A stretch of 64,000 bases of DNA from Candidatus Omnitrophota bacterium (GTDB lineage Bacteria > Omnitrophota > Gorgyraeia > 2-01-FULL-45-10), in assembly GCA_016929115.1 (NCBI GenBank), contig JAFGJL010000010.1:331-64330 (forward strand), given 5' to 3'. Both the position numbers and the translations under genes were made by a program. Every line of letters begins with the position of its first letter. The first letter of the stretch is position 1. The notes beneath the pieces were generated by a model. It saw only the letters and a program-made list of their open reading frames with translations, had not been told where the DNA came from and did no database searches. This document shows positions 34,769 to 49,994 of this stretch, in pieces.

Positions 34769-36163
34769 TTAAGCGTGCCGGAAACCTCGAAAAGCGGCAT
34801 CCTTTTCCAGATAAAGCGCTTTTGACTGCCGTATCGACTCGGACAGCTTTTTGCCGAAATAGTTCTCAAGGAGCCTTACGTTAGCCTCTAAAAGGCACCT
34901 GTGGAATTCATCGTCTTCCATATCCGTGAAGTTCACGCTCAAAAGGTCGGAATTGACATGCTTATGCTCATAAAAATCCTCGCAGTCCTTAAGCAACCCT
35001 TTTGTGATAGCGTGATAATACAAGGGAGACCCGGGATAAGGCGTAACAGGCCGTATGGTCCTGATCTGGGACCCGTCGTCATACTTCAAAAGGAACTCCA
35101 CGCCTTTTTCCAGAGTCTCTTTGTCCTCGCCGATGTTCCCGAATATGATATTGAGGCCCGGGCTTATGCCGACCTCAAGCGTGTTCTCGATCCCCTTTAT
35201 CACCTGCTCGGTCGTCAGGGCCTTGTTCATGTTCTTGAGTATGCGGTCATCCATGGCCTCTATACCGTAGTTGACAAATACGCACCCTGCCTTCTTCATC
35301 AGCTCAAGCACCTTCTTCGTGGCAAAGTTGAGCCTGCCGTTGCAATACCAGTTTATGCCGAGCCCCGCACGAAGAAAATCCTCGCACAGCTCCGTCGTCC
35401 TCGCCTCCGAGCACATGAAAAGATCGTCGCAGAAAGATATGTAGGTGACGTTATACCTGTCCTTGAGCGTCTTTATCTCGTCTATTATGCTCTTGGCTGT
35501 CCTTGGGCGGAACCCCTTGTCCATCCTGTAGCAGAAATTGCACTTATAAGGGCAGCCCCGGCCCGTTATTATAGGAAGACCTTTCTGGTTGTGTTTGATA
35601 TTGGGAAAACGGAACAGGGAGTAATATTCCATGTTAAAGAGATCCCATGCCGGATACGGTATCGAATCGAGGTCCTTTATCAGCGGCCGCGATGGCGTCT
35701 GGATGAACTTTCCGCTCTCTTTGTCTATATAGGCTATGCCCTTAACATCTTTCCACGGAGAATCATTTTCGATGGCCTTGCATAACTCCACGATAGTCTT
35801 TTCGCCCTCGCCTGTCACGACAGCGTCCGCTTCCGTCTTCTTCAGGAAATACTGCGGCTCAGGCGACGGGCCGTGCCCGCCGATGACATAGACCGGCCTG
35901 TTCTTTGACTTATTTACGGCCTCGGATATCTTGAGCAATTTCCTGTATTGGTAATATCCGCCCGAAACGCCCATGCCCACCAGGTCAAACCGGTGTTCAT
36001 CAAGATAAGCGGTGATATGCCCCTCCGGAAGATGGCCCGCATCCTGCTGATAGACGGTCACATCGTGCCCCGCCTCCCTCAGCGCGGCCGCGACGTATCC
36101 CAATCCCAGAGGGAACCAGTGCAGGAACGAATCGTTGTCATAGGCTATCAAGAGTATCTTCAT
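34769..36163 (-). CDS. Cobalamin-binding (class B) radical SAM enzyme
   Basis: The B12-binding N-terminus is KILLIAY...PLGLGYVAAAL. The CX3CX2C motif is GRGCPYKCNFC. Confidence 0.8.
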   Translation of the reverse strand: MKILLIAYDNDSFLHWFPLGLGYVAAALREAGHDVTVYQQDAGHLPEGHITAYLDEHRFDLVGMGVSGGYYQYRKLLKISEAVNKSKNRPVYVIGGHGPSPEPQYFLKKTEADAVVTGEGEKTIVELCKAIENDSPWKDVKGIAYIDKESGKFIQTPSRPLIKDLDSIPYPAWDLFNMEYYSLFRFPNIKHNQKGLPIITGRGCPYKCNFCYRMDKGFRPRTAKSIIDEIKTLKDRYNVTYISFCDDLFMCSEARTTELCEDFLRAGLGINWYCNGRLNFATKKVLELMKKAGCVFVNYGIEAMDDRILKNMNKALTTEQVIKGIENTLEVGISPGLNIIFGNIGEDKETLEKGVEFLLKYDDGSQIRTIRPVTPYPGSPLYYHAITKGLLKDCEDFYEHKHVNSDLLSVNFTDMEDDEFHRCLLEANVRLLENYFGKKLSESIRQSKALYLEKDAAFRGFRHA

Positions 36164-37746
36164 GCTGTTTCCAGTGCCGGCTCTTCATTAAAACGCTTTT
36201 TATAGACCCTGTATTCCAGGTCGCGCAGGCCTCTTGCCGCCTCGCTATCGGCCGCGGTAAGCAACCGCTTCACTTCGTCGCGCATCGCTGGCTCGGTCTC
36301 CTGAAAAAGTATAAAATTGTCCATGAGCCTCTTGCCCTCTTCCTTTGTCTTCGGGTCTACTTTGAGGACGGTGTCCTCGAACGTGATGTAATTCTCATTC
36401 AGATAGTCCATGTCGCGGACGGATCCTTCGTCCTCGATCCTGTTGAGCGCGTTCAAGTCGATCATGCCTTCTTTCATGCAATACTCTCTCAGCTCCGTTC
36501 CGGCGTAAGGGTAAAATATCCTTGCGGAAGCATGGTCGATGCCCCATTTGCCGCTTAAGCGGACATCCTGCCACATGTCTTCCAGCGTTTCATGGGGAAG
36601 GAAGAACATGAAATTGGCGACTTTCCGCAAGCCGTACTCAGTGATTATTTCGAAACATCTTTCGTACGCCTCATTGGATATGGGCTTGTTGAGGACCTTT
36701 TTTCTCAGCCGCTCATTCGACGTTTCCACCCCCACGCTCACTGACCGGCAACCCATCTCCGCCAGCATCCTGGCATTGTCGCGGTTTATCGTTTGCGCGG
36801 TCGTTTCGATGGTGAACGGCAGCGCTATGCTTTTTTTGTAAATGCTTGCGAATTTTGACAGATAATCCTTCGGCATCGAAAGGAATGTCTCGTCCCAGAA
36901 GCGCAGGAATTCCAGGTCATAGCGCTCCTTCAGGAAAAGAAGCTCGTCTGTGAGATAAGAAAGGCTCTTGAACCGCGGGCGTCTGCTTTCCCCGCCATAT
37001 ATGCGCCCGAAGAGGTCGTTTATGCAAAAATTGCATACATACGGGCATCCCCTGCCGATGAAAACGCTTCCCCGCCTGTAAAGTTTCCCTTCAAAGGGAT
37101 AGTAGAAATTGGCATCGTTGTACATGGACCAATCCAACATGGGAACGTCGTCGCTGAACTGCATCAGCGGCCTCAGGGGATTCTTTATGACCTTACCGTC
37201 CTTCTTTATCCACAGGTTCTTGATGGAGGTATCCGTCTTTCCGCTGTCTATAGCATCGAGGAGGTCGACAAGCGCCAGCTCCCCCTCGCCCACGCAGACC
37301 ATCGACACCTCGTCATGTTTTATGACTTGCTCCGGCCTGACCGTGGCGTGAACGCCGCCCACTATGATGGGGATATCCGGCACCATTGCGCGGACCTTCC
37401 TTATAAGAAAAAGCGCAAAGGGCCAATCGTCGGAAAACGACGAAAAGCCGATGACATCGATCTTGCGGTTCACGATAGCGCCTCTGAGATCGCCCAAAAG
37501 GCTCATGATGGACTTTTTCCGCGGCATGACCTCTTTATTCTTTATCGCCCTGAATTCAAGGTCTATGCGGGGCTTGTCCTTATACGACCTGTACGATGCC
37601 GCTGCCTTATCGCTCGTGTAATCCGCGGTGTCAAAAAATATGAACTTGTGCCCTGCTTTTTTGGCAAAAGCCGACATGCTCGAGATGCCCGGATACTGGA
37701 CGCCCGAGACCAGCCTGTTGCAATGTATCATCAAAACCGTTGCCAT
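36160..37746 (-). CDS. Cobalamin-binding (class B) radical SAM enzyme
   Basis: The B12-binding N-terminus is present. The CX3CX2C motif is GRGCPYVCNFC. There is a verified ATGA junction with the downstream rSAM gene. Length is 528 aa. Confidence 0.8.
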   Translation of the reverse strand: MATVLMIHCNRLVSGVQYPGISSMSAFAKKAGHKFIFFDTADYTSDKAAASYRSYKDKPRIDLEFRAIKNKEVMPRKKSIMSLLGDLRGAIVNRKIDVIGFSSFSDDWPFALFLIRKVRAMVPDIPIIVGGVHATVRPEQVIKHDEVSMVCVGEGELALVDLLDAIDSGKTDTSIKNLWIKKDGKVIKNPLRPLMQFSDDVPMLDWSMYNDANFYYPFEGKLYRRGSVFIGRGCPYVCNFCINDLFGRIYGGESRRPRFKSLSYLTDELLFLKERYDLEFLRFWDETFLSMPKDYLSKFASIYKKSIALPFTIETTAQTINRDNARMLAEMGCRSVSVGVETSNERLRKKVLNKPISNEAYERCFEIITEYGLRKVANFMFFLPHETLEDMWQDVRLSGKWGIDHASARIFYPYAGTELREYCMKEGMIDLNALNRIEDEGSVRDMDYLNENYITFEDTVLKVDPKTKEEGKRLMDNFILFQETEPAMRDEVKRLLTAADSEAARGLRDLEYRVYKKRFNEEPALETA

Positions 37747-37766: not shown

Positions 37767-38426
37767 TCAGGCCACTTCCACAAATGATATCGCGTTTGAA
37801 TAAGGAAGTTTATTTATCTTTATATTCTTACCGTTGAAGAAATCATCTATCGCTTTATTGGCGCCCGCGAACGCGCCGTAATCATCCAGCACCACGATGC
37901 CCCCTTTGGAGACGAGCGGATACAGCTCTTTAAGGCAAACAGCCGTCGCTTCATGCAAGTCCACATCGATATGCAAAAGGGATATCTTGAGATGGGGATT
38001 TTTAGCTTTGTACTCCGGGACGGTCTTCAATATGTCCCCTTCAACGAGATCTATGTTCTGGTATAAGCCGAGCTTTTGAAGTACGGAGACGAACTGGTCC
38101 TTGCTGATGCTCTGGCTGCCTGCCTCTTTTATGAATTGCGCCCTGCGCTCCACATCCTTTTCATACTTCGCCGCCGGAAATTCCCCGAACGTATCGAACG
38201 CCACTATCTTCTTTGAGTGGACGTTCTCGAAAAGCGCCCTGAATTTGATGAAACGCGAAAGCGAGACGCCTTTAAAGACGCCGCACTCCACTATGTCCCC
38301 CGCTATGCCGGATACCCTCCTGAAAAGGTCGAGGTGTGTCGCGAACTTACTTATCCTGTTGATGGGGGCCGTCAGGTAGAAATTATTCTCGTAATCGAAC
38401 TGTTTTGCGAAATCAAGCTCTATCAT
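37767..38426 (-). CDS. TylF/MycF-family (macrocin-type) SAM-dependent sugar O-methyltransferase
   Basis: GDIVECGVFKGVS...LLHIDVDLHEAT...GGIVVLDDYG, typical of the PF05711 family. Confidence 0.75.
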   Translation of the reverse strand: MIELDFAKQFDYENNFYLTAPINRISKFATHLDLFRRVSGIAGDIVECGVFKGVSLSRFIKFRALFENVHSKKIVAFDTFGEFPAAKYEKDVERRAQFIKEAGSQSISKDQFVSVLQKLGLYQNIDLVEGDILKTVPEYKAKNPHLKISLLHIDVDLHEATAVCLKELYPLVSKGGIVVLDDYGAFAGANKAIDDFFNGKNIKINKLPYSNAISFVEVA

Positions 38427-38449: not shown

Positions 38450-39307
38450 CTATTTTTTCAGTTTCTTCCTTATATCTTTCTCGCTCGGCATGATCCGTTT
38501 CTCGCCGTCTCCCATGATCGCGTCTATATCCCTTATTCTTTTCCTGAGCATATCCATCGCCGCAACCTCAAGGCTCGCGGCGTGGTCGGTCCCCCACATG
38601 CCGTGGTTCAGCGTTATGTGGCGCTCGATGATCTTCGCCCCCAGCACCGACGCGTAGACGGTCGGCTCAACGTTATACTCGTGGCCGCTGTATCCGATGA
38701 CGCAGCCGTAACGTTTTTTGAGGGTCTTTACGCAGTTGATGTTCAGCTCTTCTTTCGGTGTCGGATAGCTGGAATTCGTGTGCATGAGGGCAAAATCCGA
38801 CGCGTACCTTTTCAATACATCCACGAGGTCATCCACTTCCTTCATCGAGCTCATCCCGGTGGACGCTATTATCGGCACCCCGGTCTTGGCGGCGGTCTCT
38901 ATCAGTTTCAAGTCCGATATCTTGGCGGAAGGTATCTTGATGAACGGCATTTTATAGCCCAGGCTGAACCGGAGGCTGTCCATGTCCCAAACGGACGCGG
39001 TCCAGTCGATCGGCTTCTCCCTGCAGTACTTATCTATGTAATCGTATTCTTCCCTGCCGAATTCTATCTTCTTCTTGTATTCAAGATATGTCATCCTGCC
39101 CCAAGGGGTATCCCTCAAGACCTTCTTCTGCTTTTCAGGGATGCATTTATCCGGATTCCTCTTCTGGAATTTGGCGCAGTTCCAATGGCATGCGAAGACC
39201 GCGTCGATCAGCCTTTTGGCGATATTCAGGTCGCCGTTATGATTTATCCCTATTTCCCCTATAAGGTAAATACCGTCGATATCCTTGAAACGCATCATAT
39301 CGCTCAC
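38450..39307 (-). CDS. NeuB-family PEP-condensing synthase, SAF-less (second paralog)
   Basis: LIGEIGINHNGD...KFQKR...ASTGMS...GYSGHE...ERHITLN. Length is 285 aa. Confidence 0.85.
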   Translation of the reverse strand: MSDMMRFKDIDGIYLIGEIGINHNGDLNIAKRLIDAVFACHWNCAKFQKRNPDKCIPEKQKKVLRDTPWGRMTYLEYKKKIEFGREEYDYIDKYCREKPIDWTASVWDMDSLRFSLGYKMPFIKIPSAKISDLKLIETAAKTGVPIIASTGMSSMKEVDDLVDVLKRYASDFALMHTNSSYPTPKEELNINCVKTLKKRYGCVIGYSGHEYNVEPTVYASVLGAKIIERHITLNHGMWGTDHAASLEVAAMDMLRKRIRDIDAIMGDGEKRIMPSEKDIRKKLKK

Positions 39308-39312
39308 CTCTT

Positions 39313-39987
39313 TTATTTCGATTTGAAGAACCGGCCTATTTTTTGGGCTTCCTTGAAATCTTTCTCGCTGTCTATGTCTACCGAAGAGAATACGCCATCC
39401 TGCTTATATAATCTTGCGGCCTTGCCGTACCAAGAATTATGGCCGCGGAAGTGGCCCACGTTGACGGCGTAAAACATGCCGTTCTCGACCGTATATTCAA
39501 AGCCGAAATCATCCGTGCCGCGGCGCTTGCCTTCTGTTTTGAACAAAGGCCTGCTTGACCTCCAAACGAACGGACTGACGCTGAAGCACGAGATAACGGC
39601 GTCCGGGCCGTCTTTTTCTATGATCTTCGCTATAGAACGGTAGTCCTCCTTCGTCCTGAAAGGCGACGTCGGGTTCAGCAACCAGAGATAATCTTTACCG
39701 GACATCCCGTATCGGCGGATCAAAAGCTGCATAAGGTCCTTGATGCATGCCCTCTTCGTCGCAAGCCTCTTCTCCCTAAGGTGTTTCACGGCTCCGGCCG
39801 GTGGCCTGTAGGCAATCCTGTCGGTAGATACTATCACCTTGTCGAAAATGCCGTCCGGTATCGTTGCCAACGTAAAATCGACCAGGCATTTCCCGCCCAA
39901 AAAGGAGCGCCAGTTCTTGTCCCTACACCGGCTCGAATTGTTCTTGGCCGGGACCAGTCCGTAATGTCTTATATTATTTCTCTTCAT
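39313..39987 (-). CDS. Acylneuraminate cytidylyltransferase family (CMP-ulosonic acid synthetase, NeuA/KdsB-like)
   Basis: GLVPAKNNSSRCRDKN...LGGKCLVDFTL, a CTP_transf_3-type N-terminus. Length is 224 aa. Confidence 0.75.
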   Translation of the reverse strand: MKRNNIRHYGLVPAKNNSSRCRDKNWRSFLGGKCLVDFTLATIPDGIFDKVIVSTDRIAYRPPAGAVKHLREKRLATKRACIKDLMQLLIRRYGMSGKDYLWLLNPTSPFRTKEDYRSIAKIIEKDGPDAVISCFSVSPFVWRSSRPLFKTEGKRRGTDDFGFEYTVENGMFYAVNVGHFRGHNSWYGKAARLYKQDGVFSSVDIDSEKDFKEAQKIGRFFKSK

Positions 39988-41320
39988 TTAGGAGTTTCTC
40001 TTTTATGAGTTTACCCACTATCGCCTCATCCTTCAGCCCGAAATCGGCAGGCGAAAACGTTCCGCCTTTTTTGTGCCAGGCCTCCAGTATGAGGGCGATA
40101 TCATCCTTAACGCATAATATCTCGGAGCCAAAACGGTCTATCATGTAAAAACCATCTTCCTTCCTGAACCTCAAGTTGGACGGGACTGAGCATTTCAGGC
40201 CGGAAAGCTTCACTGTCGGCTCTTTTTCGGCCACCCGGCCTTTCGGTTTGACGGGCCACCCTATCCTGAGTATATCAGCCGAAGACATCCTACCGGCATA
40301 GGCCAGCGCGCACAGCCTGCAGCCTCCGTTGCATTCGTCGAACATCTCGCAGGCTTTGCACTCATCCGGGAAATATTCACCGGACCGCCACTTTTTCATG
40401 TTCGCCCATACGCCCTTTAATCCGGCTTCGAATATGTTGCCGTAGCTTTCCTTCTCGTGGACGCAGGCATGGGCGTCGCCATTCGCGTTCAGCGATATCA
40501 TCTTGTTCCCGGCGGGGCAGCCGTGAGAATAAAATTTCGCGTACCTTTTTTTATCGTCATCCCCTACGAGCAGGCACAGCGGGAACGGAACAAGCGTTCC
40601 GACCTGCATCGGGAAATCCTTCTCCACCCTCATCAACTCATCGATTATGCGGCGCGCTTCCTTCTGGTATATAAGGAACTCTTTCTGCTCGTTCACGTCC
40701 TTTGTAATGTGCGGGGTCACACGCGTCCCGAAGAATTTTTTGGCTCCGAGTTCCGAGGCGAGCTTCGCTGTCTCGTAAATATCGCCTATGTTCGTTTCGG
40801 ATATTATCATGTTTACGCTTATACGTATGCCGACCGAGACGGCGTTCTTTATGCCATCGACGATCTTGGCATAGGCGCCCTTCATCGATACGAGGTAATC
40901 GTTCCTCTCTGGGATGTGGGAATTCAGGGATGTCAGGACATGCTCCAGACCGGCCTCTTTGAGTTTCTTGAGCTTCCCGGCCGAATTCGCCACGGCGAGT
41001 GTGGAATTACAGGTAACACTGGCGCCGGCGCCCTTCGCCTTTTTTATGCCCTGCAGGAGCAACGGGCTGTTCAAAAGCGGCTCACCCCCCGTGAAGATCA
41101 CGTGCATGATGCCGTTCTTTATAAGTTCATCCAGTATCCTGTCGAGCTCGGCCTGCGACATGAAAACCGGTTTCGTCTTCTCCGGCCGCCAGAAGTTGTA
41201 ACAATGCCTGCAGCTGAAACAGCATGAAGATGTAAGCTCTATATGCACGGTTGTAGGCAATGAAAGCGTCATGTCGTTTTCCAAAGTGGCTATGGGGGTC
41301 TTGACTATTTTTTTCAGCAT
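39974..41320 (-). CDS. Radical SAM / SPASM-domain protein
   Basis: The CX3CX2C motif is SSCCFSCRHC, and the C-terminal SPASM cysteines are CKACEMFDECNGGCRLC. Length is 448 aa. Confidence 0.75.
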   Translation of the reverse strand: MLKKIVKTPIATLENDMTLSLPTTVHIELTSSCCFSCRHCYNFWRPEKTKPVFMSQAELDRILDELIKNGIMHVIFTGGEPLLNSPLLLQGIKKAKGAGASVTCNSTLAVANSAGKLKKLKEAGLEHVLTSLNSHIPERNDYLVSMKGAYAKIVDGIKNAVSVGIRISVNMIISETNIGDIYETAKLASELGAKKFFGTRVTPHITKDVNEQKEFLIYQKEARRIIDELMRVEKDFPMQVGTLVPFPLCLLVGDDDKKRYAKFYSHGCPAGNKMISLNANGDAHACVHEKESYGNIFEAGLKGVWANMKKWRSGEYFPDECKACEMFDECNGGCRLCALAYAGRMSSADILRIGWPVKPKGRVAEKEPTVKLSGLKCSVPSNLRFRKEDGFYMIDRFGSEILCVKDDIALILEAWHKKGGTFSPADFGLKDEAIVGKLIKEKLLNEEK

Positions 41321-42663
41321 TATTTTTTCATCGCTCCTCTTGCTATTATATAAGCCGTCTTATTGTTAAGGGTGTCGGTCCGGAAAGATTCCTTCCCTGA
41401 AAGGCCGAAAAGATCCACGTTATCGAAGTGGCGTTTCATCATGGCGCTGAGACTGTTATATGTGAGGTTGCTTATATGGAAGGGGTTTTCTGTCTGGCCG
41501 GTTATATCTTCCGAGACCGGGCATGTCAGCCATACCTCGCCGCCGGGCTTCAGCCAGCTCTTGGCCCTCACGAGGAACTTTTCCGGTTCGGCAAGATGCT
41601 CTATCGTCTCGACGCTGATGATCTTGCTGTAAAGCTCTTTCGGGTCGAATGACTCCACCGGCGAGGCATCGAACCGTATATTGGGCCGCCCGTGATTGCG
41701 CCTGGCGTATTCGATCGTCTTCCGGTCGCCGTCCACACCGCGGACCGCAAGCGCCTTTGAAGCCAAAAGTTCACTGCCATAGCCGCTTCCACAAGCTATA
41801 TCAAGGACCGAATCACGCGGTTTCACATGCTTAAGGAAGAACCTGTAGCGCCCGAAATGCCTTTCGTAAGCGGCGGAATCGAAGGCGTTCCTTAATATGC
41901 CCATTTGCGGATCATCGTGTACATAGAAACGCTGGACATTGAACCTTCCTCTCTCGTTCCAGCTCACGCGCTTGTTTTTAAATGAGAGGGCCGCTTCAGC
42001 CATCGCGACATCATACTGGGTCTCTATGTCGACCCCCGACACTTCGTCCATTTCGAAGCCATAGGACTTCCCGGACATAAGCAGGCCGTTTAACCCGTCT
42101 ATCTGCTTAGGCCTGATAAGCCATATGGCGCGATTCAACCTGTAAAGAGGCGGCTGGTCCTGGCGGTTGGTATATTTAAAGGCGCCTTTGACCAGCGGCC
42201 TGGCCCTCTTACTGCCGTCCAGCGATAATCCTCCAAAAGGATGTGTGCGAAGCCGCGTGACACCCGCCACGCTGTCAAAGCCCTTCAGTGACCGGGCGAA
42301 CTTTATCGCGTCTTCGACGTGTTTCGCGGTCCTGAACGGCGCGGTGGGAGAAAGTACCGCTACCATGTCCGGCCCTGGCCGACCCATATGGCTGAGAGCG
42401 TTCTTCACAGCGTCCTTTATAGGTGCGCCATCGCCGGCCAGGGGTTTTGGCCGCCTTATCAGTATCATGCCCCTGTGTCCTTTGTACTTTTTGAGAAGCT
42501 CCGCGTCATCCGTGGACAGATAGACGTTGCGTACTGATGGGGATCCGCAAGCCGCTTCGATCGTATATTCTATGAGAGGCTTATCGCCGATAAGGATCGT
42601 GCATTTCTTATACAACCCCTTACTGCCGCTGCGGGCCAATATGAGTGCGTCTGTCTTCATCAT
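41320..42663 (-). CDS. Bifunctional fusion: acylneuraminate cytidylyltransferase-family domain (N) + class I SAM methyltransferase (C)
   Basis: The N-terminus has ALILARSGSKGLYKKCTILIGDKPLIEY (CTP_transf_3). The C-terminus has VLDIACGSGYGSELL...ISVETIEHL (Methyltransf_11). Length is 447 aa. Confidence 0.75.
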   Translation of the reverse strand: MMKTDALILARSGSKGLYKKCTILIGDKPLIEYTIEAACGSPSVRNVYLSTDDAELLKKYKGHRGMILIRRPKPLAGDGAPIKDAVKNALSHMGRPGPDMVAVLSPTAPFRTAKHVEDAIKFARSLKGFDSVAGVTRLRTHPFGGLSLDGSKRARPLVKGAFKYTNRQDQPPLYRLNRAIWLIRPKQIDGLNGLLMSGKSYGFEMDEVSGVDIETQYDVAMAEAALSFKNKRVSWNERGRFNVQRFYVHDDPQMGILRNAFDSAAYERHFGRYRFFLKHVKPRDSVLDIACGSGYGSELLASKALAVRGVDGDRKTIEYARRNHGRPNIRFDASPVESFDPKELYSKIISVETIEHLAEPEKFLVRAKSWLKPGGEVWLTCPVSEDITGQTENPFHISNLTYNSLSAMMKRHFDNVDLFGLSGKESFRTDTLNNKTAYIIARGAMKK

Positions 42664-42670
42664 CTCCCCT

Positions 42671-43222
42671 TTATACCAGCTTGTCGGCCAACAATAACGC
42701 GGTCGAGGCGAGCGACTTAAGTTCCTCTATTTTCTTAAGCCTTTCCTCGTAGGTCTTTGCCAGCTTCTTCTCTTCATCGGTCCAATTCTCATCCGGCACC
42801 TTGATGATGTTCTTGAAGGAGTCTATCATGTCTGAGGTCTCTCCCATCCTCCTCTGGATAGCCTGCCTCACCTTTCTCAATATGACGCCTTTCACATCGA
42901 GGTTCGCCTCATAGTAGTCCTTCCGGGACCCCTTTACCCAAACGCTTCTTACGGCGTTCCAGTTCTCAAGCTCCCGGATATTGATGCTGACATTGCCCTT
43001 GCTTACCTTGAGCCTTTCGACTATCTCGTCCAGGGAAAGAGGCTTGTCGCTCAGATACAGCACGGCGTAGAGCTGGGCTATGAAACGGTTCAACCCGAAG
43101 CTGTCGCACAATTTCCCGATGCTTTCAATGAACTTGTCTTGGGCGGTCTCCAACTTGCTATTCATCTGCATCCCCCTTTGATTATCTCCTGTTGCGCTTT
43201 CGATCCTCATCTGTTTTGACAT
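42671..43222 (-). CDS. GbsR/MarR-like winged-helix transcriptional regulator
   Basis: LNRFIAQLYAVLYLSDKPLSLDEIVERLKVSKGNVSINIRELE...KDYYEA resembles COG1510/GbsR. The start may be an internal ATG (43210 or 43174). Confidence 0.55.
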   Translation of the reverse strand: MSKQMRIESATGDNQRGMQMNSKLETAQDKFIESIGKLCDSFGLNRFIAQLYAVLYLSDKPLSLDEIVERLKVSKGNVSINIRELENWNAVRSVWVKGSRKDYYEANLDVKGVILRKVRQAIQRRMGETSDMIDSFKNIIKVPDENWTDEEKKLAKTYEERLKKIEELKSLASTALLLADKLV

Positions 43223-43673
43223 AATATAAAAGCTCCCTTAAAACGCCCTCGCCGCCGGTTGTATTCAGGACGATCTTTGCTACAGCCTTTGCTTCCTTGC
43301 AGGCGTTAGCGGGACATACGGGATGCCCCACGATCCGCATCGCTTCAAGATCGTTAAGGTCGTTACCCACATAGACCACGTCCTTCAGGGGTATATTCGT
43401 GTCGCGGCAATATATTTTCAAGGCCTCGCACTTATCCGGCACATCCTGCAATACGGGTATATCGAGCTTTTTCGCTCTTTCAGCGACCACCTTGTTTCTT
43501 TCTGTGGAGAGGATCATCTGGGGTATTCCGCGGCGCTTAAAGACGCCCACCGCCAGCCCGTCAGAACGGTTGACGGTGACGCTCTCCAGGCCGTCCTCCC
43601 TCAGGATGATCTTATTATCCGTCATCACTCCGTCAAAATCGTATACTATGAGTTTTATGTTCCTCACCAGCAT
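43182..43673 (-). CDS. KdsC-family HAD phosphatase (ulosonic acid-phosphate phosphatase)
   Basis: LIVYDFDGVMTDN (DxDGV) and VYVGNDLNDLEAM. A length of 163 aa is typical of KdsC and of KDN-9-P phosphatases. Confidence 0.8.
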   Translation of the reverse strand: MLVRNIKLIVYDFDGVMTDNKIILREDGLESVTVNRSDGLAVGVFKRRGIPQMILSTERNKVVAERAKKLDIPVLQDVPDKCEALKIYCRDTNIPLKDVVYVGNDLNDLEAMRIVGHPVCPANACKEAKAVAKIVLNTTGGEGVLRELLYYVKTDEDRKRNRR

Positions 43674-44524
43674 GTCCTCCCGCCGTCTATCACGACATTT
43701 GCCCCGGTCATATAGGAAGAAGCGTCGCTGACCAGGAAGACGACCGCGGCTTCGTATTCATCGCTCTTGGCCATGCGTCCCATAGGTATCAGATCCGTAA
43801 GCTTGCTGACGAACCCGGCCGGTTGGTTCTTATAAACTCCACCGGGAGATATGGAATTCACCCGTATGTTCTTACTTGCCCAGTAGGTAGCGCAATATTT
43901 GGTAAGCCCTATAAGGCCGTGCTTGACCACAGAATAAGTGACGGGCTTAGCGGGTTGCCCGGTTTCCGGCAGCCCTTTTTTGCGGTATATCCTCTGATCA
44001 GGCGCTATGACGCCCAGATCCGAAGAAACGTTCAGCATGACCCCGCCGCCGTGTCCGGCAAAATAGGATCCCACGACCTGGCTGCAGATAAACGCTCCGG
44101 TGAGTCCGACGGAAATATCTTTTTCCCATGACTCAAGTCCGAAGTTCTCCAGTCTGCTTCCGGCAAGGCTATCGCTTTTTTCCACCTTCGGGTTATGGGC
44201 CGCGTTATTTATGAGTATATTGGCCTTTTTGAACCTGCGGATAACCGCCGAAAGCGCGTCCTTGACGCATTTCTGATCCCTGATATCCACGGCAAAACCT
44301 TCGCATCTGACGCCGCAGGATCTATTGATATCCTGGGCGGCTTTCTTCACGGCCTTTTCGTCTATATCCCATAACACCGGTATCCCGCCCGCTTCGCCTA
44401 CCGCCTTGGCGTGCCTGCGCCCTAAAAAGCCAGCGCCGCCCGTGATGATAGCCACTTTACCCCCGAGCCTGAATCTATCAAGTGTTTTCATGGTGATCCT
44501 TTTATCTTTAGGCCATCTCTTCAA
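43664..44524 (-). CDS. Classical short-chain dehydrogenase/reductase (SDR)
   Basis: VAIITGGAGFLGRR, NNAA and YSVVK (YxxxK). The start may be the ATG at 44491. Confidence 0.75.
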   Translation of the reverse strand: MKRWPKDKRITMKTLDRFRLGGKVAIITGGAGFLGRRHAKAVGEAGGIPVLWDIDEKAVKKAAQDINRSCGVRCEGFAVDIRDQKCVKDALSAVIRRFKKANILINNAAHNPKVEKSDSLAGSRLENFGLESWEKDISVGLTGAFICSQVVGSYFAGHGGGVMLNVSSDLGVIAPDQRIYRKKGLPETGQPAKPVTYSVVKHGLIGLTKYCATYWASKNIRVNSISPGGVYKNQPAGFVSKLTDLIPMGRMAKSDEYEAAVVFLVSDASSYMTGANVVIDGGRTCW

Positions 44525-45875
44525 AACACTCTTCGTAAACTCTCAGCCCTTCCACAAGCGCGCTTTCTGGTATCGTCAAGGGCGGGCCGAGTTTTATTGT
44601 CCCGCGCCCGGTGCATATCGAGAAGACGCCTTTTTCCATGGCCCGCTCAACGATGCGGTTCGTGAAGTCTATATCGAGCTCGTCAGAATTCTTCTTTGTG
44701 ACGAAGACGCCGAAGAGCATGCCCTTACCCAGGATACGGCCGATCCGGCCGGGAAACCGCTTTTTCAATCTGGCGAGCTCCCTGGTGATTACAGCTTCTT
44801 TCCGCTTCGATACGGCCACTAGATCGTCCTTTTCGAACGCCTCCAGATTGCCCAGTCCGGCCGCGCATACCAGCGGATGCCCGCCGTGCGTGCTGGTATA
44901 GGTCGGGTCAAGCTCGATCAGGCCGGCGCCTCCCAATACGGCCGAAAGCGGCAGGCTCGACGAGATCGCCTTACCGCAGATAACCATATCGGGCTCCACG
45001 CCGTAGTGCTCGTAGGCGAAAAATTTGCCCGTCCTGCCGAAACCCGCCTGTATCTCGTCAAATACCAGAAGCGACTTGTTCTCTTTGGACCACTTTCTCA
45101 TCGTCTTTATATAATCTACCGGATAGAAGACCGCTCCCCATCCCTGGAACGATTCGACAAAGAACGCGGCGATCTCGTTCAGTTTAACGCCGCCCTTTTC
45201 AAGGTCTTTCAAATGCTTAAAGAAGAGAGCTTCCCCCCTCAACCCGGATCTTTCCAATGCCCATGGATAAGGGAACGGCATATGAACCATGTTCGGGTCG
45301 AGGTAGCCTATCCATTTCTTTCCGTCATGCTGGCCGCCTGCCATCTGGGAGCCCATCGTCTTGCCGTGGAAATTCCCCTCTCCTCCGACGATAACTGCCT
45401 TCCGTGGCGTGAACTGCATGCCGTAGTACCGGGCCAGCTTTATCGCCCTCTCGCTGGCCTCTGTCCCGGAACTGAATAATGACGCCTTCTTCAGGTAAGA
45501 AGGCGTCATTGAAATGAGCTTTTCCAGGAATGCCGCCCTTATGGGGGTAGGATAAGAATAGCTATGGAGAAGCGGCTTGTCCAACTGCTCCTTGACGCGC
45601 TTTATTATACGGCTATTGCCGTGGCCGGCATTGGTAACAAAAATGGACGACGTGAAGTCTATCCATTTGTTCCCCCAGGAGTCAAAGACCTGGTATCCTT
45701 CGGCATGGTCCCATATCACAGGCAACTGGTCCATCACGTTGGAGGACTCGTACTTTTTGATCTTTTTCAGCAGTTTCAGCGACTGTGGCACCGGGATCTT
45801 AGTTTTGATGCAACGGTACTTTGTAAGCACTTTCGGAACGGCTCGCGGCGTCAGGTTGAACTTAAAACCACTCAT
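44508..45875 (-). CDS. Class III PLP-dependent aminotransferase
   Basis: DEIQAGFGRTGKFFA and ICGKAISSSLPLSAV (Schiff-base lysine region). Length is 455 aa. Confidence 0.8.
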   Translation of the reverse strand: MSGFKFNLTPRAVPKVLTKYRCIKTKIPVPQSLKLLKKIKKYESSNVMDQLPVIWDHAEGYQVFDSWGNKWIDFTSSIFVTNAGHGNSRIIKRVKEQLDKPLLHSYSYPTPIRAAFLEKLISMTPSYLKKASLFSSGTEASERAIKLARYYGMQFTPRKAVIVGGEGNFHGKTMGSQMAGGQHDGKKWIGYLDPNMVHMPFPYPWALERSGLRGEALFFKHLKDLEKGGVKLNEIAAFFVESFQGWGAVFYPVDYIKTMRKWSKENKSLLVFDEIQAGFGRTGKFFAYEHYGVEPDMVICGKAISSSLPLSAVLGGAGLIELDPTYTSTHGGHPLVCAAGLGNLEAFEKDDLVAVSKRKEAVITRELARLKKRFPGRIGRILGKGMLFGVFVTKKNSDELDIDFTNRIVERAMEKGVFSICTGRGTIKLGPPLTIPESALVEGLRVYEECFEEMA

Positions 45876-45920: not shown

Positions 45921-47009
45921 CTAACGACTCCTGGACATTTCCGGGACGTTCATCTCTCTTGTCGTAGGGACATAGCGCTTAGCTTGCTCAATATCCTTCC
46001 CGGATGACGTCAGGGTATACTTGACGGATAAGTATAGGGCGGAATCCATGACCTTTTCGCCCACACGTATCTCCTTTAAAATCAGGGCCCTGCCTCCGGC
46101 GATAACCCTGACATACCGGTCGTCCAATATAGTAACGATCTTGCCGTTACAAAAAGGATGGAATTCCTGCGAGACCGATGTGTCGATATAGCTGTCCAGG
46201 ATATGCACCTTTTGGCCGTTGTAATAGGTATAGGCTCCCGGATAAGGGACGCTGAACGCCCTTATGAACCGTTCGACCGAGTTGATATCCCAATCCCAGT
46301 TTATGATGCCGTTCTGCTCCGTATAAAGGCGCGGATAATAAAAGCTTTTGTTGTGGTCCTGGGGCCTGGCGGGAACGGGATCCTCCTTTAAAAGAATGTC
46401 GAGAAACCCGCTCAGGAGCTTCTTGCAATTGTCCACTTCCGCGATCAGGTAATCGACCGGCTTGGGGTGATCCTTTTTTATGGCGACGCGGCCCTGGAGG
46501 ATCACGTCTCCGCTGTCTATGCCCTCGTCGAGATAATGGACGGTGTCCCCTACCGTGTTGATGCCGTTCAGGATGCGCCAGGTATTCAACGCCCCTCCCC
46601 TTTCATCCGGCAGATACGAGTCATGGATATTGAAGATCTGCCCCTTGAAATAGTCGATTATCATCTTCTTTATGATATTGCGGCAGCTCGTCGAAAAGCC
46701 GATATTGCATTTATGCCCGGACAGGATCTCGATAGCTTCGTCGCAATTGACGTTCTCCATCTTGTAGATCCTGACCAACCCACGGCTGGCCAGGGACTCC
46801 ATGTCCCCGCAAAGCCCGTAAGGGGTCAGGAGCTTTTTATCCCTCATGTATTCTTCGTCCGGAGAGACGATCGCGACAGGCGGCGGGAATCCGCGCGCGT
46901 GCAATTCCTTGATCAGATGGTCTGTATAGACGATCCTGCCGAAAATGGCGAATTGAAAGTCCTTGGGCTGTTTCACGTTTGCGTCCTTTGGGTTAAAGGC
47001 TCCACACAC
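45921..47009 (-). CDS. Formyltransferase-family protein (sugar N-formyl/acyl transferase, Fmt N+C domains)
   Basis: NIHDSYLPDERGGA matches the HxSLLPxxRG formyltransferase motif. There is a C-terminal Fmt_C-like domain. Confidence 0.7.
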   Translation of the reverse strand: MCGAFNPKDANVKQPKDFQFAIFGRIVYTDHLIKELHARGFPPPVAIVSPDEEYMRDKKLLTPYGLCGDMESLASRGLVRIYKMENVNCDEAIEILSGHKCNIGFSTSCRNIIKKMIIDYFKGQIFNIHDSYLPDERGGALNTWRILNGINTVGDTVHYLDEGIDSGDVILQGRVAIKKDHPKPVDYLIAEVDNCKKLLSGFLDILLKEDPVPARPQDHNKSFYYPRLYTEQNGIINWDWDINSVERFIRAFSVPYPGAYTYYNGQKVHILDSYIDTSVSQEFHPFCNGKIVTILDDRYVRVIAGGRALILKEIRVGEKVMDSALYLSVKYTLTSSGKDIEQAKRYVPTTREMNVPEMSRSR

Positions 47010-47796
47010 TGTTGGAGCCGACCGGTTCTTTCAAACGGGCCTCTCTTTTCAGGTTCTTGTAATTTGAGCAAAGATGATCATAGACGGGATGTTTCTGGTT
47101 CGCCAGAAAGAAGTTCAGCTTCCTGAAATCGTCCGGTCCGTCGACTTCGCCCGTGTCGGGAGTCATGAAGGCCAGCATCCTCGGTCCGTAACACGATCTA
47201 TAGCGCTTCAGGGTGTGCGTTTTGATGATATCGACATACCCGTTACCGAAATATGCGGGCGGGAAAGCCTGTCTGGGAAGCGTAAAATATTCCGGTCTGG
47301 GATCGAAGGGACACAGGCCCTGCAGATAACCGTCATGCATGCCGAACATCTTCCCTGGCGGCTCTTCGATCTCATGCACGGAAACGAGGCTGGTCGACTC
47401 CGGCCTGCTTTTTATGTACGAGACGGATTCGCTGAGCAGCGCCGGGTCACGAAGCGGGGTCGTGGGGCGTATCTGGACCCAGTATTCAGGCGCATAGTTC
47501 TCGTTCTGCTCAAACCAGCCCAGGGCATGCTCGATGACTTCCTTATCCGTTGAATTGTCCCTGGCGAATTCGGCCGGCCTCATAAAAGGCACTTCGGCAC
47601 CAAAAAGTTTCGCGATCTCCGCGATCTCTTCGCTATCCGTTGAAATGATGGTCCTTTCTATATTCTTGGCCAGCTTGCATGCAACCACTGAATACGCTAT
47701 TAAAGGAAAGCCACCGAGATCGCGTATATTCTTTTTGGGCACTCCCTTTGAGCCGCCGCGGGCTTGTATCAACGCGATCACATCGCTTTTTTTCAT
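46993..47796 (-). CDS. Acylneuraminate cytidylyltransferase family (third CMP-sugar synthetase)
   Basis: ALIQARGGSKGVPKKNIRDLGGFPLIAYSV. Length is 267 aa. Confidence 0.8.
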   Translation of the reverse strand: MKKSDVIALIQARGGSKGVPKKNIRDLGGFPLIAYSVVACKLAKNIERTIISTDSEEIAEIAKLFGAEVPFMRPAEFARDNSTDKEVIEHALGWFEQNENYAPEYWVQIRPTTPLRDPALLSESVSYIKSRPESTSLVSVHEIEEPPGKMFGMHDGYLQGLCPFDPRPEYFTLPRQAFPPAYFGNGYVDIIKTHTLKRYRSCYGPRMLAFMTPDTGEVDGPDDFRKLNFFLANQKHPVYDHLCSNYKNLKREARLKEPVGSNSVWSL

Positions 47797-47808: not shown

Positions 47809-49152
47809 CTAATTGGAAACAGCATTACGTTCGCGCAGGCCTTTAAAGACAGGCGAACCCGGTTTGCATCTAAGGAATTTTGCGATATCGTCGCCGCTCT
47901 CCACGGCGTTCTTTATGACGACGCAGGCCTTGTCGAACGAGTCGATGAAACAATCAAGGTCTTCGCGCGAATGTGAGTAAGAGAGCATGAGGACCCCCGC
48001 AAAGCAGAGTATGCCCTCCTTGAACATCTCCTGTTGGTAAAGCGTTGCGAGGTTAAGGTTGTGGATGCCGTTTGAATCGTGCGTATTGACCATGAGCCGC
48101 ACCGGATATCCCGCCAGGGAAACGTTTTTACCGACCCCGTGCCTGTCAATGATAGCCCTGAGCCCCTTCTCCAGATATTCTCCTTTCTCCCATAATTTTG
48201 CGATCACATCATTTTCCTTATAAAAATCTATCACCGCTGAAGCCGCGGCCAATGTCAATGCTTCAGGCGCGTAGGTGGAGGAGAGAAAGGCCTTGTCAAA
48301 ATTTTTCATGTATTTCCTCTTCCCCGCGATAACGCCCAGAGGCATGCCGTTCGTTATGCCTTTGCCGAATGTCGCGAGGTCGGGCACCACATTAAAGAAC
48401 TCCTGCGCCCCTCCCATCCTGAAGCGGAAACCCGATATCATCTCGTCGAATATGAGGAGCGCGCCGTTCTCGTGAGCCAGCGCCTTGACCTTGTTCAGGA
48501 AATCGTCCTTTGGTTTTTCCGCTATCACCGGCTCCATGATCACGGCGGCCACACGGCCGTGGTACTGCTCGAACATCTTACTTAAACCGCTTATGTCGTT
48601 ATACCGGAAAGACTTGGTGAGCTCGCGCACGCATTTGGGGACACCGGCGTTGCGGTCCGTAGAGCCGATATACCAGTCCTGGAAGCCGTGGTAGCCGTAA
48701 CATAATATCATCTCTTTTCCTGTAACGGCCCTTGCCAGCCTCACGGCCGCCGCGCACACATCGCTGCCGTTCTTGGAAAATTTGAGCATCTCGGCACACG
48801 GAATGCATTCAACAAGCTTTTCGGCCACCTCCACCTCCAGCGGATTGAGCAGGCTGAAGAGTATGCCTTTATCCATCTGTTTTTTTATGGCCTCATTGAT
48901 GGGCTCGTAATTATGCCCCAAGGTGGTCGGCCCGCACCCCATTACCATGTCGATAAACTCGTTGCCGTCAACGTCCCAGACATGGGAACCCTTCTGCCGG
49001 ATGACGTATTTCGGCGCGGCACCGTCCGGAAAGACGCCCGGGGACCTGCTGAATGTCTGAGTGCCAGTAGCTATCACCTTGAGCGCTCTCCGCCATAATT
49101 CGTCGCTCTTCTTGATGCCGTACCTCAAGCCAAGTTTTTTGTTTGCTGACAT
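47809..49152 (-). CDS. Class III aminotransferase, glutamate-1-semialdehyde aminomutase-like
   Basis: FDEMISGFRFRMGGAQEFFNVVPDLATFGKGITNGMPLGVIAG (HemL-like signature). Length is 447 aa. Confidence 0.8.
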   Translation of the reverse strand: MSANKKLGLRYGIKKSDELWRRALKVIATGTQTFSRSPGVFPDGAAPKYVIRQKGSHVWDVDGNEFIDMVMGCGPTTLGHNYEPINEAIKKQMDKGILFSLLNPLEVEVAEKLVECIPCAEMLKFSKNGSDVCAAAVRLARAVTGKEMILCYGYHGFQDWYIGSTDRNAGVPKCVRELTKSFRYNDISGLSKMFEQYHGRVAAVIMEPVIAEKPKDDFLNKVKALAHENGALLIFDEMISGFRFRMGGAQEFFNVVPDLATFGKGITNGMPLGVIAGKRKYMKNFDKAFLSSTYAPEALTLAAASAVIDFYKENDVIAKLWEKGEYLEKGLRAIIDRHGVGKNVSLAGYPVRLMVNTHDSNGIHNLNLATLYQQEMFKEGILCFAGVLMLSYSHSREDLDCFIDSFDKACVVIKNAVESGDDIAKFLRCKPGSPVFKGLRERNAVSN

Positions 49153-49994
49153 ATCGCCTCCTTATCTTCGAGCCATTTTTCCACCATACAACGGTACCTG
49201 CACAACGCGCCGGCATGATCACCGTCCGAAGCCCTTGCGGTCTGCAGGATATAGTTACCCTCATAACCGCCGGCACGAAGAGCGCTGAGAGCACCGGCTA
49301 TATCGGCATCCCCTTCTCCCAGGGGCACGGTCGTGCCCTTGAACTTCCTGTCCTTTATATGGACGTTCTTTATCCTGCCGCCATAAGCCGGGAACTCCTC
49401 TTTAAAATCATAGCCCAGCGAAGCGCTGTTACCGATATCGTAATTGATACCGAAATGTTCCGGATCAAATTTAGCGATGAACTTCTTAAGGCGGGACGGC
49501 CTAAAATCCGATTCGAATACTATGACCGCCCCGCTATCGCGAAGGACAGGAGCGACCGAAGCCATGCCTCTCAATAATTCCTCCTCCTGATCCTTATTTT
49601 CCAGGCTGCCTTTATCCACCAGCGGGACCACTATCTTCTTTATGCCTAATTCGGCGCATGAGGAGACTATTTTCTTAAAATCATCCAGCAGACTTGTGTT
49701 GCGGGACCCTTGCGCTTTATAAAAAGGCTCCTGGATATAGGTGTCGCAGGTTATGGACCTTATAGCCATATCGTTCTTCTTCATTAATTCCTTGATCTCA
49801 AGACGGCCCGCTCTGCTCATGAGGGGGTTCTCGTTCAATCTTTCCTGCTCAATAACCCATTCCATCAGCCTGAACCCATGCTTCTTTGCAATGGCGAACT
49901 CATCGCGCCATGTCTGCCAAGGGAAGGCCTGTATCCTGCCTTCCTCTATAACCGAAAACCGGCCCTGCATAAAACCTATTCGCGCTGGATCCAT
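49125..49994 (-). CDS. Xylose-isomerase-like TIM-barrel sugar(-phosphate) isomerase/epimerase
   Basis: AP_endonuc_2-type pattern (HGFRLMEW...IVFESDF...HFGINYDIGN...HIKD) with the acidic/His metal ligands. Confidence 0.65.
   Translation of the reverse strand: MDPARIGFMQGRFSVIEEGRIQAFPWQTWRDEFAIAKKHGFRLMEWVIEQERLNENPLMSRAGRLEIKELMKKNDMAIRSITCDTYIQEPFYKAQGSRNTSLLDDFKKIVSSCAELGIKKIVVPLVDKGSLENKDQEEELLRGMASVAPVLRDSGAVIVFESDFRPSRLKKFIAKFDPEHFGINYDIGNSASLGYDFKEEFPAYGGRIKNVHIKDRKFKGTTVPLGEGDADIAGALSALRAGGYEGNYILQTARASDGDHAGALCRYRCMVEKWLEDKEAICQQTKNLA

Follow-up and report, generated by a model that had tools for sequence, protein, structure and literature searches.

The 64,000-nucleotide stretch of contig JAFGJL010000010.1 analysed here at full length (the window; Candidatus Omnitrophota bacterium, assembly GCA_016929115.1) encodes a protein of 447 amino acids (aa) with a predicted two-domain structure, in which an N-terminal NeuA-like cytidylyltransferase (CT) domain is fused to a C-terminal class I S-adenosylmethionine (SAM)-dependent methyltransferase (MT). 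The initial annotation had described a single 447-aa open reading frame (ORF) joining a CTP_transf_3 domain to a Methyltransf_11 domain, and this was confirmed by Pfam and by the ORF listing, which holds exactly one ORF at 41320..42663 (minus), starting with ATG. The start codon is preceded by AGGGGAG, read as a ribosome-binding site. At the other end, the TAA stop codon and the ATG of the next gene overlap as TAATG; thus, the fusion gene is part of a long minus-strand operon, in which its translation is probably coupled. The gene and its parts are located as follows (all coordinates are window positions):

41320..42663, minus strand: fusion gene (447 aa plus stop codon), with the NeuA-like CT domain N-terminal and the class I SAM methyltransferase C-terminal
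41974..42663, minus strand: domain with the NeuA/CMP-nonulosonate-synthetase fold (residues 1–230)
41842..41973, minus strand: junction and N-terminal extension of the MT (residues 231–274)
41320..41841, minus strand: Rossmann-type SAM methyltransferase core (residues 275–447)

The Pfam CTP_transf_3 model (PF02348) matched residues 6–78 only (E 4e-12, 46.8 bits, cut-off 22.6). However, the PseF model TIGR03584 spans residues 6–224 (76.4 bits, below the equivalog cut-off of 205.7), and residues 6–229 align with the cytidine monophosphate (CMP)-N-acetylneuraminic acid (Neu5Ac) synthetases of Vibrio cholerae (6IFD, E 1e-23) and Neisseria meningitidis (1EYR, E 3e-16). Judged from these alignments, the CT domain is complete despite the short Pfam match. 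KdsB models reached 22–28 bits, below their cut-offs of 193–255. On the C-terminal side, residues 286–378 cover both the Methyltransf_25 model (E 1.4e-12, 48.6 bits, cut-off 27, model positions 1–97 of 97) and the whole of Methyltransf_11 (E 3.1e-12, 47.4 bits, cut-off 21.2); the Pfam scan gave no Lipase_GDSL match, so the C-terminus carries no SGNH/GDSL esterase domain. An AlphaFold2 (AF2) model built from the family alignment, with a mean predicted local distance difference test score (pLDDT) of 86 and a predicted template modelling score (pTM) of 0.67, was confident across the junction. In Foldseek comparisons, its N-terminal half superposed on CMP-Neu5Ac, CMP-Kdn and CMP-Pse synthetases with target-normalised TM-scores of 0.77–0.83, and its C-terminal half matched generic small-molecule SAM methyltransferases (PMT, NodS, JHAMT and DhpI).

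A search of 5.8 billion proteins retrieved 22 full-length homologues of the fusion, in addition to an identical protein from a Candidatus Omnitrophica metagenome-assembled genome (MAG). The homologues are 422–461 aa long and share 43–66% identity with the query over 98–100% of its length; beyond these 22, the scores collapsed to single-domain methyltransferases. They derive from NCBI, JGI, ENA and Logan assemblies, that is, from different samples and assemblers, with source labels that include Omnitrophica/Omnitrophota, Nitrospirae/Nitrospirota, Planctomycetia and a Mobilitalea sp. MAG. Their source names are limited to "methyltransferase domain-containing protein" and "CMP-N-acetylneuraminic acid synthetase/UbiE". 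Searched with the family profile, 1.84 billion cluster representatives yielded only two full-length clusters plus fragments, and among 185,579 species genomes (one per species) there were four carriers, namely one Nitrospirae, two Omnitrophota and one "Planctomycetia" MAG.

Within the family, mean pairwise identity is highest at the junction (residues 231–274, 64.5%), followed by the MT core (62.7%) and the CT half (47.5%). The 23-sequence family alignment contains approximately 60 invariant columns, seven of them in the CT half and more than 50 between G239 and L432. The invariant residues of the junction region (G239, N242, R245, Y247, D250, D251, Y266, R268, H269, R272, Y273 and F276) lie in an extension that is probably a substrate-binding lid. 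A frameshift or a chimeric assembly is excluded by the 22 full-length homologues together with a junction that is the best conserved segment; with the AF2 model also confident across that junction, an artefactual origin deserves practically no credence. The same-fusion search therefore bears out the fusion as genuine. That the arrangement is unusual, as initially proposed, holds for the family, which is very rare, and not for the design as such, since at least five other, distantly related fusions of CTP_transf_3 to Methyltransf_11/23 (P0138, P0142, P0172, P0209 and P0143) occur among the top 150 profile hits. These proteins (412–579 aa) have the same domain order with differing linker lengths and score 23–95 bits against the MT model of the family. 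In summary, the fusion family is real, conserved and very rare, and the CT–MT architecture itself is not unique.

The MT half carries every SAM-binding motif, so that the refuting condition set by the initial annotation, an MT domain without SAM-binding residues, does not apply. Motif I, VLDIACGSGYGS, reads LDIACGSGYG in the fusion and is of the (D/E)xGxGxG type; the acidic residue after strand beta-2 lies in GVDGD (D311 is invariant; GVDxD in the family); motif II is KIISVETIEHL (from D/S346) and is followed by motif III, LKPGG. A further motif, NPFH, is likewise invariant. Motifs I–III and the beta-2 acid are invariant or nearly so in the 23 sequences and align with S-adenosylhomocysteine-bound PMT structures. 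On these sequence features, the MT is an intact class I SAM methyltransferase and the constrained half of the fusion.

The fusion belongs to a gene module that is kept, whole or as parts on short contigs, in 11 related loci (L001, L003, L004, L005, L007, L008, L009, L011, L088, L091 and L092), with the order (winged-helix)–fusion–[radical SAM of ~450 aa]–CT–NeuB–[TylF]–HAD–B12 radical SAM–PFTS protein. Across the module the CT measures ~225 aa, NeuB 283–297 aa, the B12 radical SAM enzyme 462–464 aa and the PFTS protein 600–645 aa. In the window its members are:

42671..43222, minus strand: small winged-helix (MarR/CudC-like) protein, 183 aa, directly upstream of the fusion
43182..43673, minus strand: KdsC/KDN-9-phosphate-phosphatase-like HAD hydrolase, 163 aa (HAD163)
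39974..41320, minus strand: radical SAM/SPASM-type enzyme, 448 aa, whose ATG overlaps the fusion stop codon
39313..39987, minus strand: stand-alone cytidylyltransferase, 224 aa (CT224), with P-loop PAKNNSSRCRDKN and the motifs LLNPTSPFR and VDIDSEKDF
38450..39307, minus strand: NeuB-family ulosonate synthase lacking a SAF domain, 285 aa (NeuB285)
37767..38426, minus strand: TylF-type O-methyltransferase, 219 aa, present in most versions of the module
34769..37746, minus strand: two B12-binding radical SAM enzymes, 528 and 464 aa
32820..34757, minus strand: PFTS-motif protein with a predicted GT-B fold, 645 aa (PFTS645), always present in the module

The fusion is exclusively and tightly syntenic with the NeuB285-containing module in all 11 loci. 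Orthologues of NeuB285 share 64–77% identity across the module, with a NeuB–cupin fusion in L004 as an outlier at 30%. The 464-aa B12 radical SAM enzyme is a core member (orthologues at 59–73% identity). Orthologues of the 448-aa radical SAM enzyme (64–70% identity) directly follow the fusion in L007, L008 and L011, a place taken by a 444-aa radical SAM protein in L092, and the 183-aa winged-helix protein is conserved in L001, L005 and L008. In NCBIfam scans, leaving aside the matches of the HAD hydrolase and the PFTS protein, no neighbour came up to an equivalog cut-off; the best model for HAD163 was KDN-9-phosphate phosphatase (105 bits, cut-off 180). The constant place of the fusion in a NeuB-type module makes its link to an ulosonic acid well supported, and methylation of such an acid, as originally suggested, is the natural reading.

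PFTS645 gave a weak match to the "PFTS motif polysaccharide biosynthesis" model and to no other. Its AF2 model (pLDDT 87, pTM 0.88) adopts a GT-B fold whose nearest structures are the UDP-GlcNAc 2-epimerase/NeuC group, TarL/TagF, the CMP-Kdo domain of WaaA and a polysialyltransferase. Based on this model, PFTS645 is a candidate CMP-sugar (nonulosonate) transferase or polymerase, possibly of a new family. Homologues of PFTS645 in Elusimicrobia (L089) and in another MAG (L090) lie in canonical nonulosonate clusters without a CT–MT fusion, which hold a NeuB with SAF, a NeuC-like epimerase, a PglD-like acetyltransferase, CTs and an MptE/Maf-like protein; thus, the fusion would represent an optional, tailoring-type step of the pathway. 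In these clusters too, the PFTS-family protein lies next to NeuB and CT genes, as it always does. Also in the L089 cluster, a 569-aa protein (15539-17248 of that Elusimicrobia MAG locus) joins a CTP_transf_3-like domain to a radical SAM/SPASM domain. It was considered as a parallel to the fusion and set aside as a loose analogy, since its CT part is not of the NeuA type and lacks the catalytic residues.

The CT half of the family was compared with the 73 nearest stand-alone CTs, using the numbering of the N. meningitidis CMP-Neu5Ac synthetase (CNS) and the residue roles reported for that enzyme (PMC2901514; the equivalent of Q104 in KdsB is Q98). The residue counts carry no phylogenetic correction, and the trees used below are simple neighbour-joining trees. 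Counts for each residue are:

R12: 72/73 stand-alone CTs, 19/23 fusion family members
K16: 70/73 stand-alone CTs, 17/23 fusion family members
K21: 73/73 stand-alone CTs, 21/23 fusion family members
N22: 72/73 stand-alone CTs, 12/23 fusion family members
R71: 73/73 stand-alone CTs, 20/23 fusion family members
Q104: 66/73 stand-alone CTs, 0/23 fusion family members (L, F, S, P or N instead)
N175: 72/73 stand-alone CTs, 22/23 fusion family members
D209: 68/73 stand-alone CTs, 16/23 fusion family members
D211: 71/73 stand-alone CTs, 16/23 fusion family members

The loss of Q104 sets the family apart from the stand-alone CTs (Fisher p 2e-16, uncorrected for phylogeny). In N. meningitidis CNS, hydrogen bonds of this residue to O8 and N5 of Neu5Ac, and a role in telling sugars apart, have been proposed (PMC2901514). 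The Q104A mutant shows a 40-fold increase in sugar Km with kcat within 5-fold, and kcat falls 800- to 20,000-fold in Q104L, Q104E and Q104N; D209A and R165A are inactive, and D211A reduces kcat 15,000-fold (PMC2901514). Of the other residues, R12, S15, K16 and K21 form the nucleotide-binding part of the P-loop, and R165/Q166 bind the carboxylate and lie at the dimer interface; Q104 also contributes to catalysis.

The window fusion keeps its P-loop, ARSGSKGLYKKC, with R11, S14, K15 and K20 (equivalent to R12, S15, K16 and K21), as well as R71, T107, R167/Q168 (R165/Q166), N177 and D212 (D209). It departs at three positions (N. meningitidis number first), N22 to C21, Q104 to S105 and D211 to E214, so that the Mg2+-binding pair D209/D211 appears as D212/E214. 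On sequence, it stands at the intact end of the CT spectrum of the family, and its CT domain may or may not still activate a sugar. Other members have lost more. P-loop residues are missing from five of them (R12, S15 and K16 in P0020–P0023; S15 only in P0019), P0018 has a ~28-aa deletion that removes R165/Q166, and in P0007 the Asp pair D209/D211 is replaced by N and E. On the MT-domain tree, the five members with damaged P-loops never formed one clade (0/100 bootstraps). Their nearest MT neighbours, at 58–68% identity, have intact CT motifs, and the decayed CT halves are 36–47% identical to anything else. Synteny agrees, since P0023 lies in a locus of the L003 type and P0020 in one of the window type. 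Together, the scatter on the MT tree, the intact neighbours and the synteny suggest that the CT active site decayed several times, with the domain and the MT retained. These losses apparently arose independently in several lineages, and activation by the CT half is apparently dispensable in part of the family. Furthermore, K21, R71 and N175 are kept even in most decayed members, which suggests that ligand binding is still selected.

A separate activating enzyme is encoded next door. CT224 combines a KdsB-like P-loop, judged by comparison with PARYASTRLPGKPL, which we take to be the KdsB motif, with a NeuA-type DID metal motif; its PseF score is only 50.8 bits. Its orthologues (50–58% identity) share PAKxxSSRCxxKN, LLNPTSPFR and a DxD pair (VDID, IDID or VDIN), and CT224 has T at the R165 position. 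By these signatures, it is a distinct, conserved CT subfamily specific to the fusion module. CT224 lies beside the fusion in 10 of the 11 distinct loci, including every locus with a damaged fusion CT, and it is absent only from L005 (12 kb visible), where Q104L and N22H are the only changes in an otherwise intact fusion CT. Moreover, six loci with a single visible NeuB gene (L003, L004, L007, L009, L088 and L092) carry both the fusion and CT224, and there the CT half of the fusion would be supernumerary. CT224 is likely the activating enzyme of the module. The simplest reading of these comparisons is a functional overlap, in which CT224 and the fusion CT would recognise the same sugar and the fusion CT would be free to drift while still holding the substrate.

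Consequently, the proposal of the initial annotation, that activation is coupled to methylation in one polypeptide and yields an obligatory methylated CMP-nonulosonate donor, stands in part. The two domains, the intact MT and the ulosonate link hold; the obligatory coupling is weakened by the lower conservation of the CT half (47.5% identity against 63–65% in the MT), by the absence of Q104 from all 23 members, by five destroyed P-loops that never group and by a CT224 that adjoins the fusion in nearly every locus. We propose instead that the fusion is an ulosonate methyltransferase that takes its specificity from the built-in NeuA-like domain and acts on the CMP-ulosonate made by CT224 (or by its own N-terminal domain), the product being handed to the PFTS GT-B protein; we assign this reading a probability of about 50%. 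In this scheme, NeuB285 (38450-39307) would condense phosphoenolpyruvate with an aldose, probably a sugar phosphate, the KDN-9-phosphate-phosphatase-like HAD hydrolase would strip the phosphate and CT224 (39313-39987) would form the CMP-sugar. The C-terminal MT of the fusion would then methylate the ulosonate, probably as the CMP-sugar, with the N-terminal domain holding the cytidine-linked or free ulosonate in place for it; that domain may still make CMP-sugar itself where the catalytic residues are intact, as they possibly are in the window fusion. Finally, the product, also modified by the radical SAM enzymes and TylF, would pass to the ~640-aa GT-B protein. The substrate, the methylated atom, the order of the steps and the role of the CT as a binding module are all inferred from sequence.

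Several points weigh against this proposal. The inter-domain geometry of the fusion has the pTM of 0.67 as its sole indicator. The loss of Q104 may reflect a different sugar specificity, not a weakened catalysis, and the window fusion, given its kept residues and the conservative E214, may be a fully active CT. CT224 itself departs from the consensus (R12K, K16S and Q104N). In L005, of which 12 kb are visible, the module does without CT224, and if the window fusion is active, CT224 could instead serve a second NeuB gene of the window (31958-32839). Additionally, none of the 75 loci that surround stand-alone relatives of the MT domain contains a NeuB or a CT, so that nothing outside the fusion family ties this MT to nonulosonates.

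The kept residues bring in a possible, though rather doubtful, alternative, a true bifunctional enzyme whose N-terminal domain activates the product of one NeuB and whose fused MT methylates the nascent CMP-sugar, so that only a methylated donor reaches the transferase. The window fusion and ~10 relatives retain the P-loop, R165/Q166, N175 and both acidic Mg ligands, and with two NeuB and three CT-like genes in the window each CT could own one sugar. The lack of CT224 from L005 is in its favour, as are the precedents of the group B Streptococcus NeuA, a CT with an esterase, and of CASD1, which acetylates CMP-sialic acids (PMC8319020). However, no family member has Q104, losses at D209, at D211 and in the P-loop recur and P0018 lacks R165/Q166 through its deletion, all while the MT stays conserved; moreover, the fusion and CT224 occur together even in loci with a single visible NeuB.

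The remodelled sugar pocket could also speak for the reverse order, in which the MT methylates the free ulosonic acid and the CT pocket then acts as a gate-keeper that activates the methylated sugar only. The sugar-discriminating Q104 is replaced in every family member and in four of the five other CT–MT fusions (by Y, F, F and S; Fisher p 1e-3 against the stand-alone CTs, again without phylogenetic correction), and a hydrophobic residue at position 104 would fit a methylated O or N. It is the recurrence in the other fusions that makes this order attractive, and a fused methyltransferase may generally be linked to a remodelled sugar pocket. We nevertheless consider it unlikely, since it leaves unexplained both the decay of the P-loop and of the Mg residues in many members and the retention of CT224 beside the fusion. 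Furthermore, the uncorrected statistics may count shared ancestry between the other fusions and the family, and the structural role of Q104 in the fusion is modelled, not observed.

With regard to the acceptor, the best structural and sequence matches of the MT are broad-specificity small-molecule methyltransferases (PMT, NodS, UbiG, JHAMT and DhpI), and its stand-alone relatives are generic, as the 75 loci without NeuB or CT illustrate. The locus also contains many other methyltransferases for other sugars; identities of only 21–24% between these and the fusion MT make a paralogy comparison uninformative. The MT could accordingly act on the assembled glycan, on another sugar of the repeat unit or on a lipid carrier, with the CT-like domain as a scaffold or dimerisation platform and the fusion as a means of co-expression. 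Such use of a domain has a counterpart in vertebrate CMAS, a NeuA-type CT with a C-terminal KdsC-like pseudo-phosphatase domain that is inactive and has a structural, oligomerisation role. Nevertheless, we regard this acceptor as very improbable: the fusion is exclusively syntenic with NeuB285 and CT224 in the 11 loci, the basic invariant residues of the MT extension (R245, R268, H269 and R272) would suit an acidic or phosphorylated small substrate, and most decayed members preserve K21, R71 and N175.

A relative of the MT half lies in a different setting. Protein P0050 of Psychrobium sp. MM17-31 (L006), a CBS plus methyltransferase protein with ~34% identity to the MT half of the fusion, is encoded between a PseB/PseC/PseF-like set and a pair formed by a radical SAM/SPASM gene and a class III aminotransferase gene, and it adjoins fliE, fliF and fleQ. 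These surroundings constitute a flagellin-glycan tailoring set in a sequenced Psychrobium strain, not a MAG. Inferring the substrate of the MT from this flagellar Pse-type cluster was rejected as anecdotal, given the 75 loci of relatives without NeuB or CT. A published study on Shewanella flagellin deals with a different methyltransferase.

Returning to an ulosonate methyltransferase guided by its NeuA-like domain, a more specific version can be offered tentatively. Here, the N-terminal domain would be a CMP-nonulosonate synthetase in transition to a pseudo-enzyme, a (CMP-)ulosonate recognition module that confers specificity on a generic MT, with the remodelled Q104 pocket accommodating the methyl group; on the cell surface of Omnitrophota and some other uncultured lineages, the gene module as a whole would build an ulosonic acid, not described before, that is methylated several times on C and O.

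The module is embedded in a larger region. The whole window (1-64000, minus strand throughout) forms one surface-glycan super-locus, which also includes two radical SAM/SPASM genes, at least six class I SAM methyltransferase genes in addition to TylF, and many GT2 and GT4 glycosyltransferase (GT) genes. It holds two NeuB genes without SAF and three CTP_transf_3 genes. Further features of the region are:

799-2238, 7133-8464, 28297-29835, 34769-36163, 36160-37746 and 50848-52284, minus strand: six B12-binding radical SAM genes
8430-9542, minus strand: GT9 heptosyltransferase
9545-11161, minus strand: O-antigen-ligase-like gene
26507-28303, minus strand: ABC exporter
31958-32839, minus strand: second NeuB-family synthase, 293 aa, 41% identical to NeuB285
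46993-47796, minus strand: third CT, with a canonical P-loop, ARGGSKGVPKKN, and 126 bits to PseF

The density of methylating and radical enzymes is unusual for a glycan locus. Both NeuB proteins lack the C-terminal SAF/antifreeze-like domain of NeuB/PseI/LegI and score 223–230 bits against a NeuB cut-off of ~400; together with the KDN-9-phosphate-phosphatase-like HAD hydrolase, this hints at a sugar-phosphate substrate. The third CT is flanked (45921-47009, 44508-45875, 47809-49152 and 49125-49994) by an ArnA-like formyltransferase, two class III aminotransferases and a xylose-isomerase-like TIM barrel protein, and one of these aminotransferases is close to glutamate-1-semialdehyde aminomutase (427 bits, cut-off 486). 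By its gene content, this group, which is not conserved with the fusion, may be a second branch leading to an N-formylated amino-sugar acid. Four other composite proteins were also observed in the window: a 478-aa fusion of NTP_transferase and GT2 (60193-61629), a 758-aa GT4-family protein with two matched stretches of the Glycos_transf_1 type (52272-54548), a 622-aa fusion of a GT1-like domain and DUF218 (18805-20673), and a 339-aa fusion of a Trm112p-like zinc ribbon and a methyltransferase (16093-17112).

Bacterial surface recognition depends to a large extent on nonulosonic acids, which owe most of their diversity to tailoring. The fusion represents a new tailoring architecture, a variant of the NeuA-type fusions with a tailoring domain. 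To our knowledge, the stage of methylation has not been established for any methylated ulosonate; should the fusion methylate the CMP-sugar, or restrict activation to sugar already methylated, it would reveal the route to methylated ulosonates. The asymmetric decay of the CT half would represent an apparent conversion of an activating enzyme into a substrate-binding module, and the conserved set of NeuB285, HAD163, CT224, the fusion and the radical SAM enzymes would be a compact gene set and a possible route to a new sugar in Omnitrophota, a phylum without cultured representatives for glycan chemistry. On its own, the fusion can plausibly be read as a tailoring enzyme; what merits experiment is the apparent conversion of the CT, together with the surrounding, unexplored module for a heavily methylated ulosonate.

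Full-text literature searches aimed at such a fusion, at methylated nonulosonates or at Omnitrophota returned no characterised CT–MT fusion, no methylated-nonulosonate pathway of this type and no description of the module, and searches on radical SAM plus nonulosonate clusters and on Omnitrophota nonulosonates gave nothing relevant. Among known systems, the stand-alone CMP-nonulosonate synthetases (1EYR, 6IFD, the Aeromonas caviae CMP-Pse enzyme 9FTC and the P. parvum CMP-Kdn enzyme 9T4Z) share the fold of residues 6–229. Compared with them, the window fusion keeps the P-loop R/S/K/K, R165/Q166, N175 and D209, differs at Q104, N22 and D211, and carries 217 extra residues. CMAS shows decay in its appended domain, whereas in the fusion family it is apparently the CT half that decayed and the appended MT that remains intact. 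Tailoring at the level of the CMP-sugar is known from CMAH, the CMP-Neu5Ac hydroxylase, and from the O-acetyltransferase CASD1 (PMC8319020). Both resemble the fusion in that a nucleotide sugar is the substrate of the modifying enzyme, which for the MT is inferred only, but they are eukaryotic, have unrelated folds and are not fused to a synthetase. The nearest characterised analogue is the bifunctional NeuA of group B Streptococcus and Escherichia coli K1, in which a CT is joined to an O-acetylesterase that acts before or after CMP activation (PMC8319020). Like the fusion, it has an N-terminal NeuA-type CT and a C-terminal enzyme that alters a substituent on the nonulosonic acid of that CT, and its gene lies in the biosynthetic cluster of the sugar. 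The two nevertheless differ, in that the fusion carries a SAM methyltransferase that would add a group in place of an SGNH esterase that removes one, and in that decay is seen in its CT half and not in its tailoring half, with a separate CT encoded next door.

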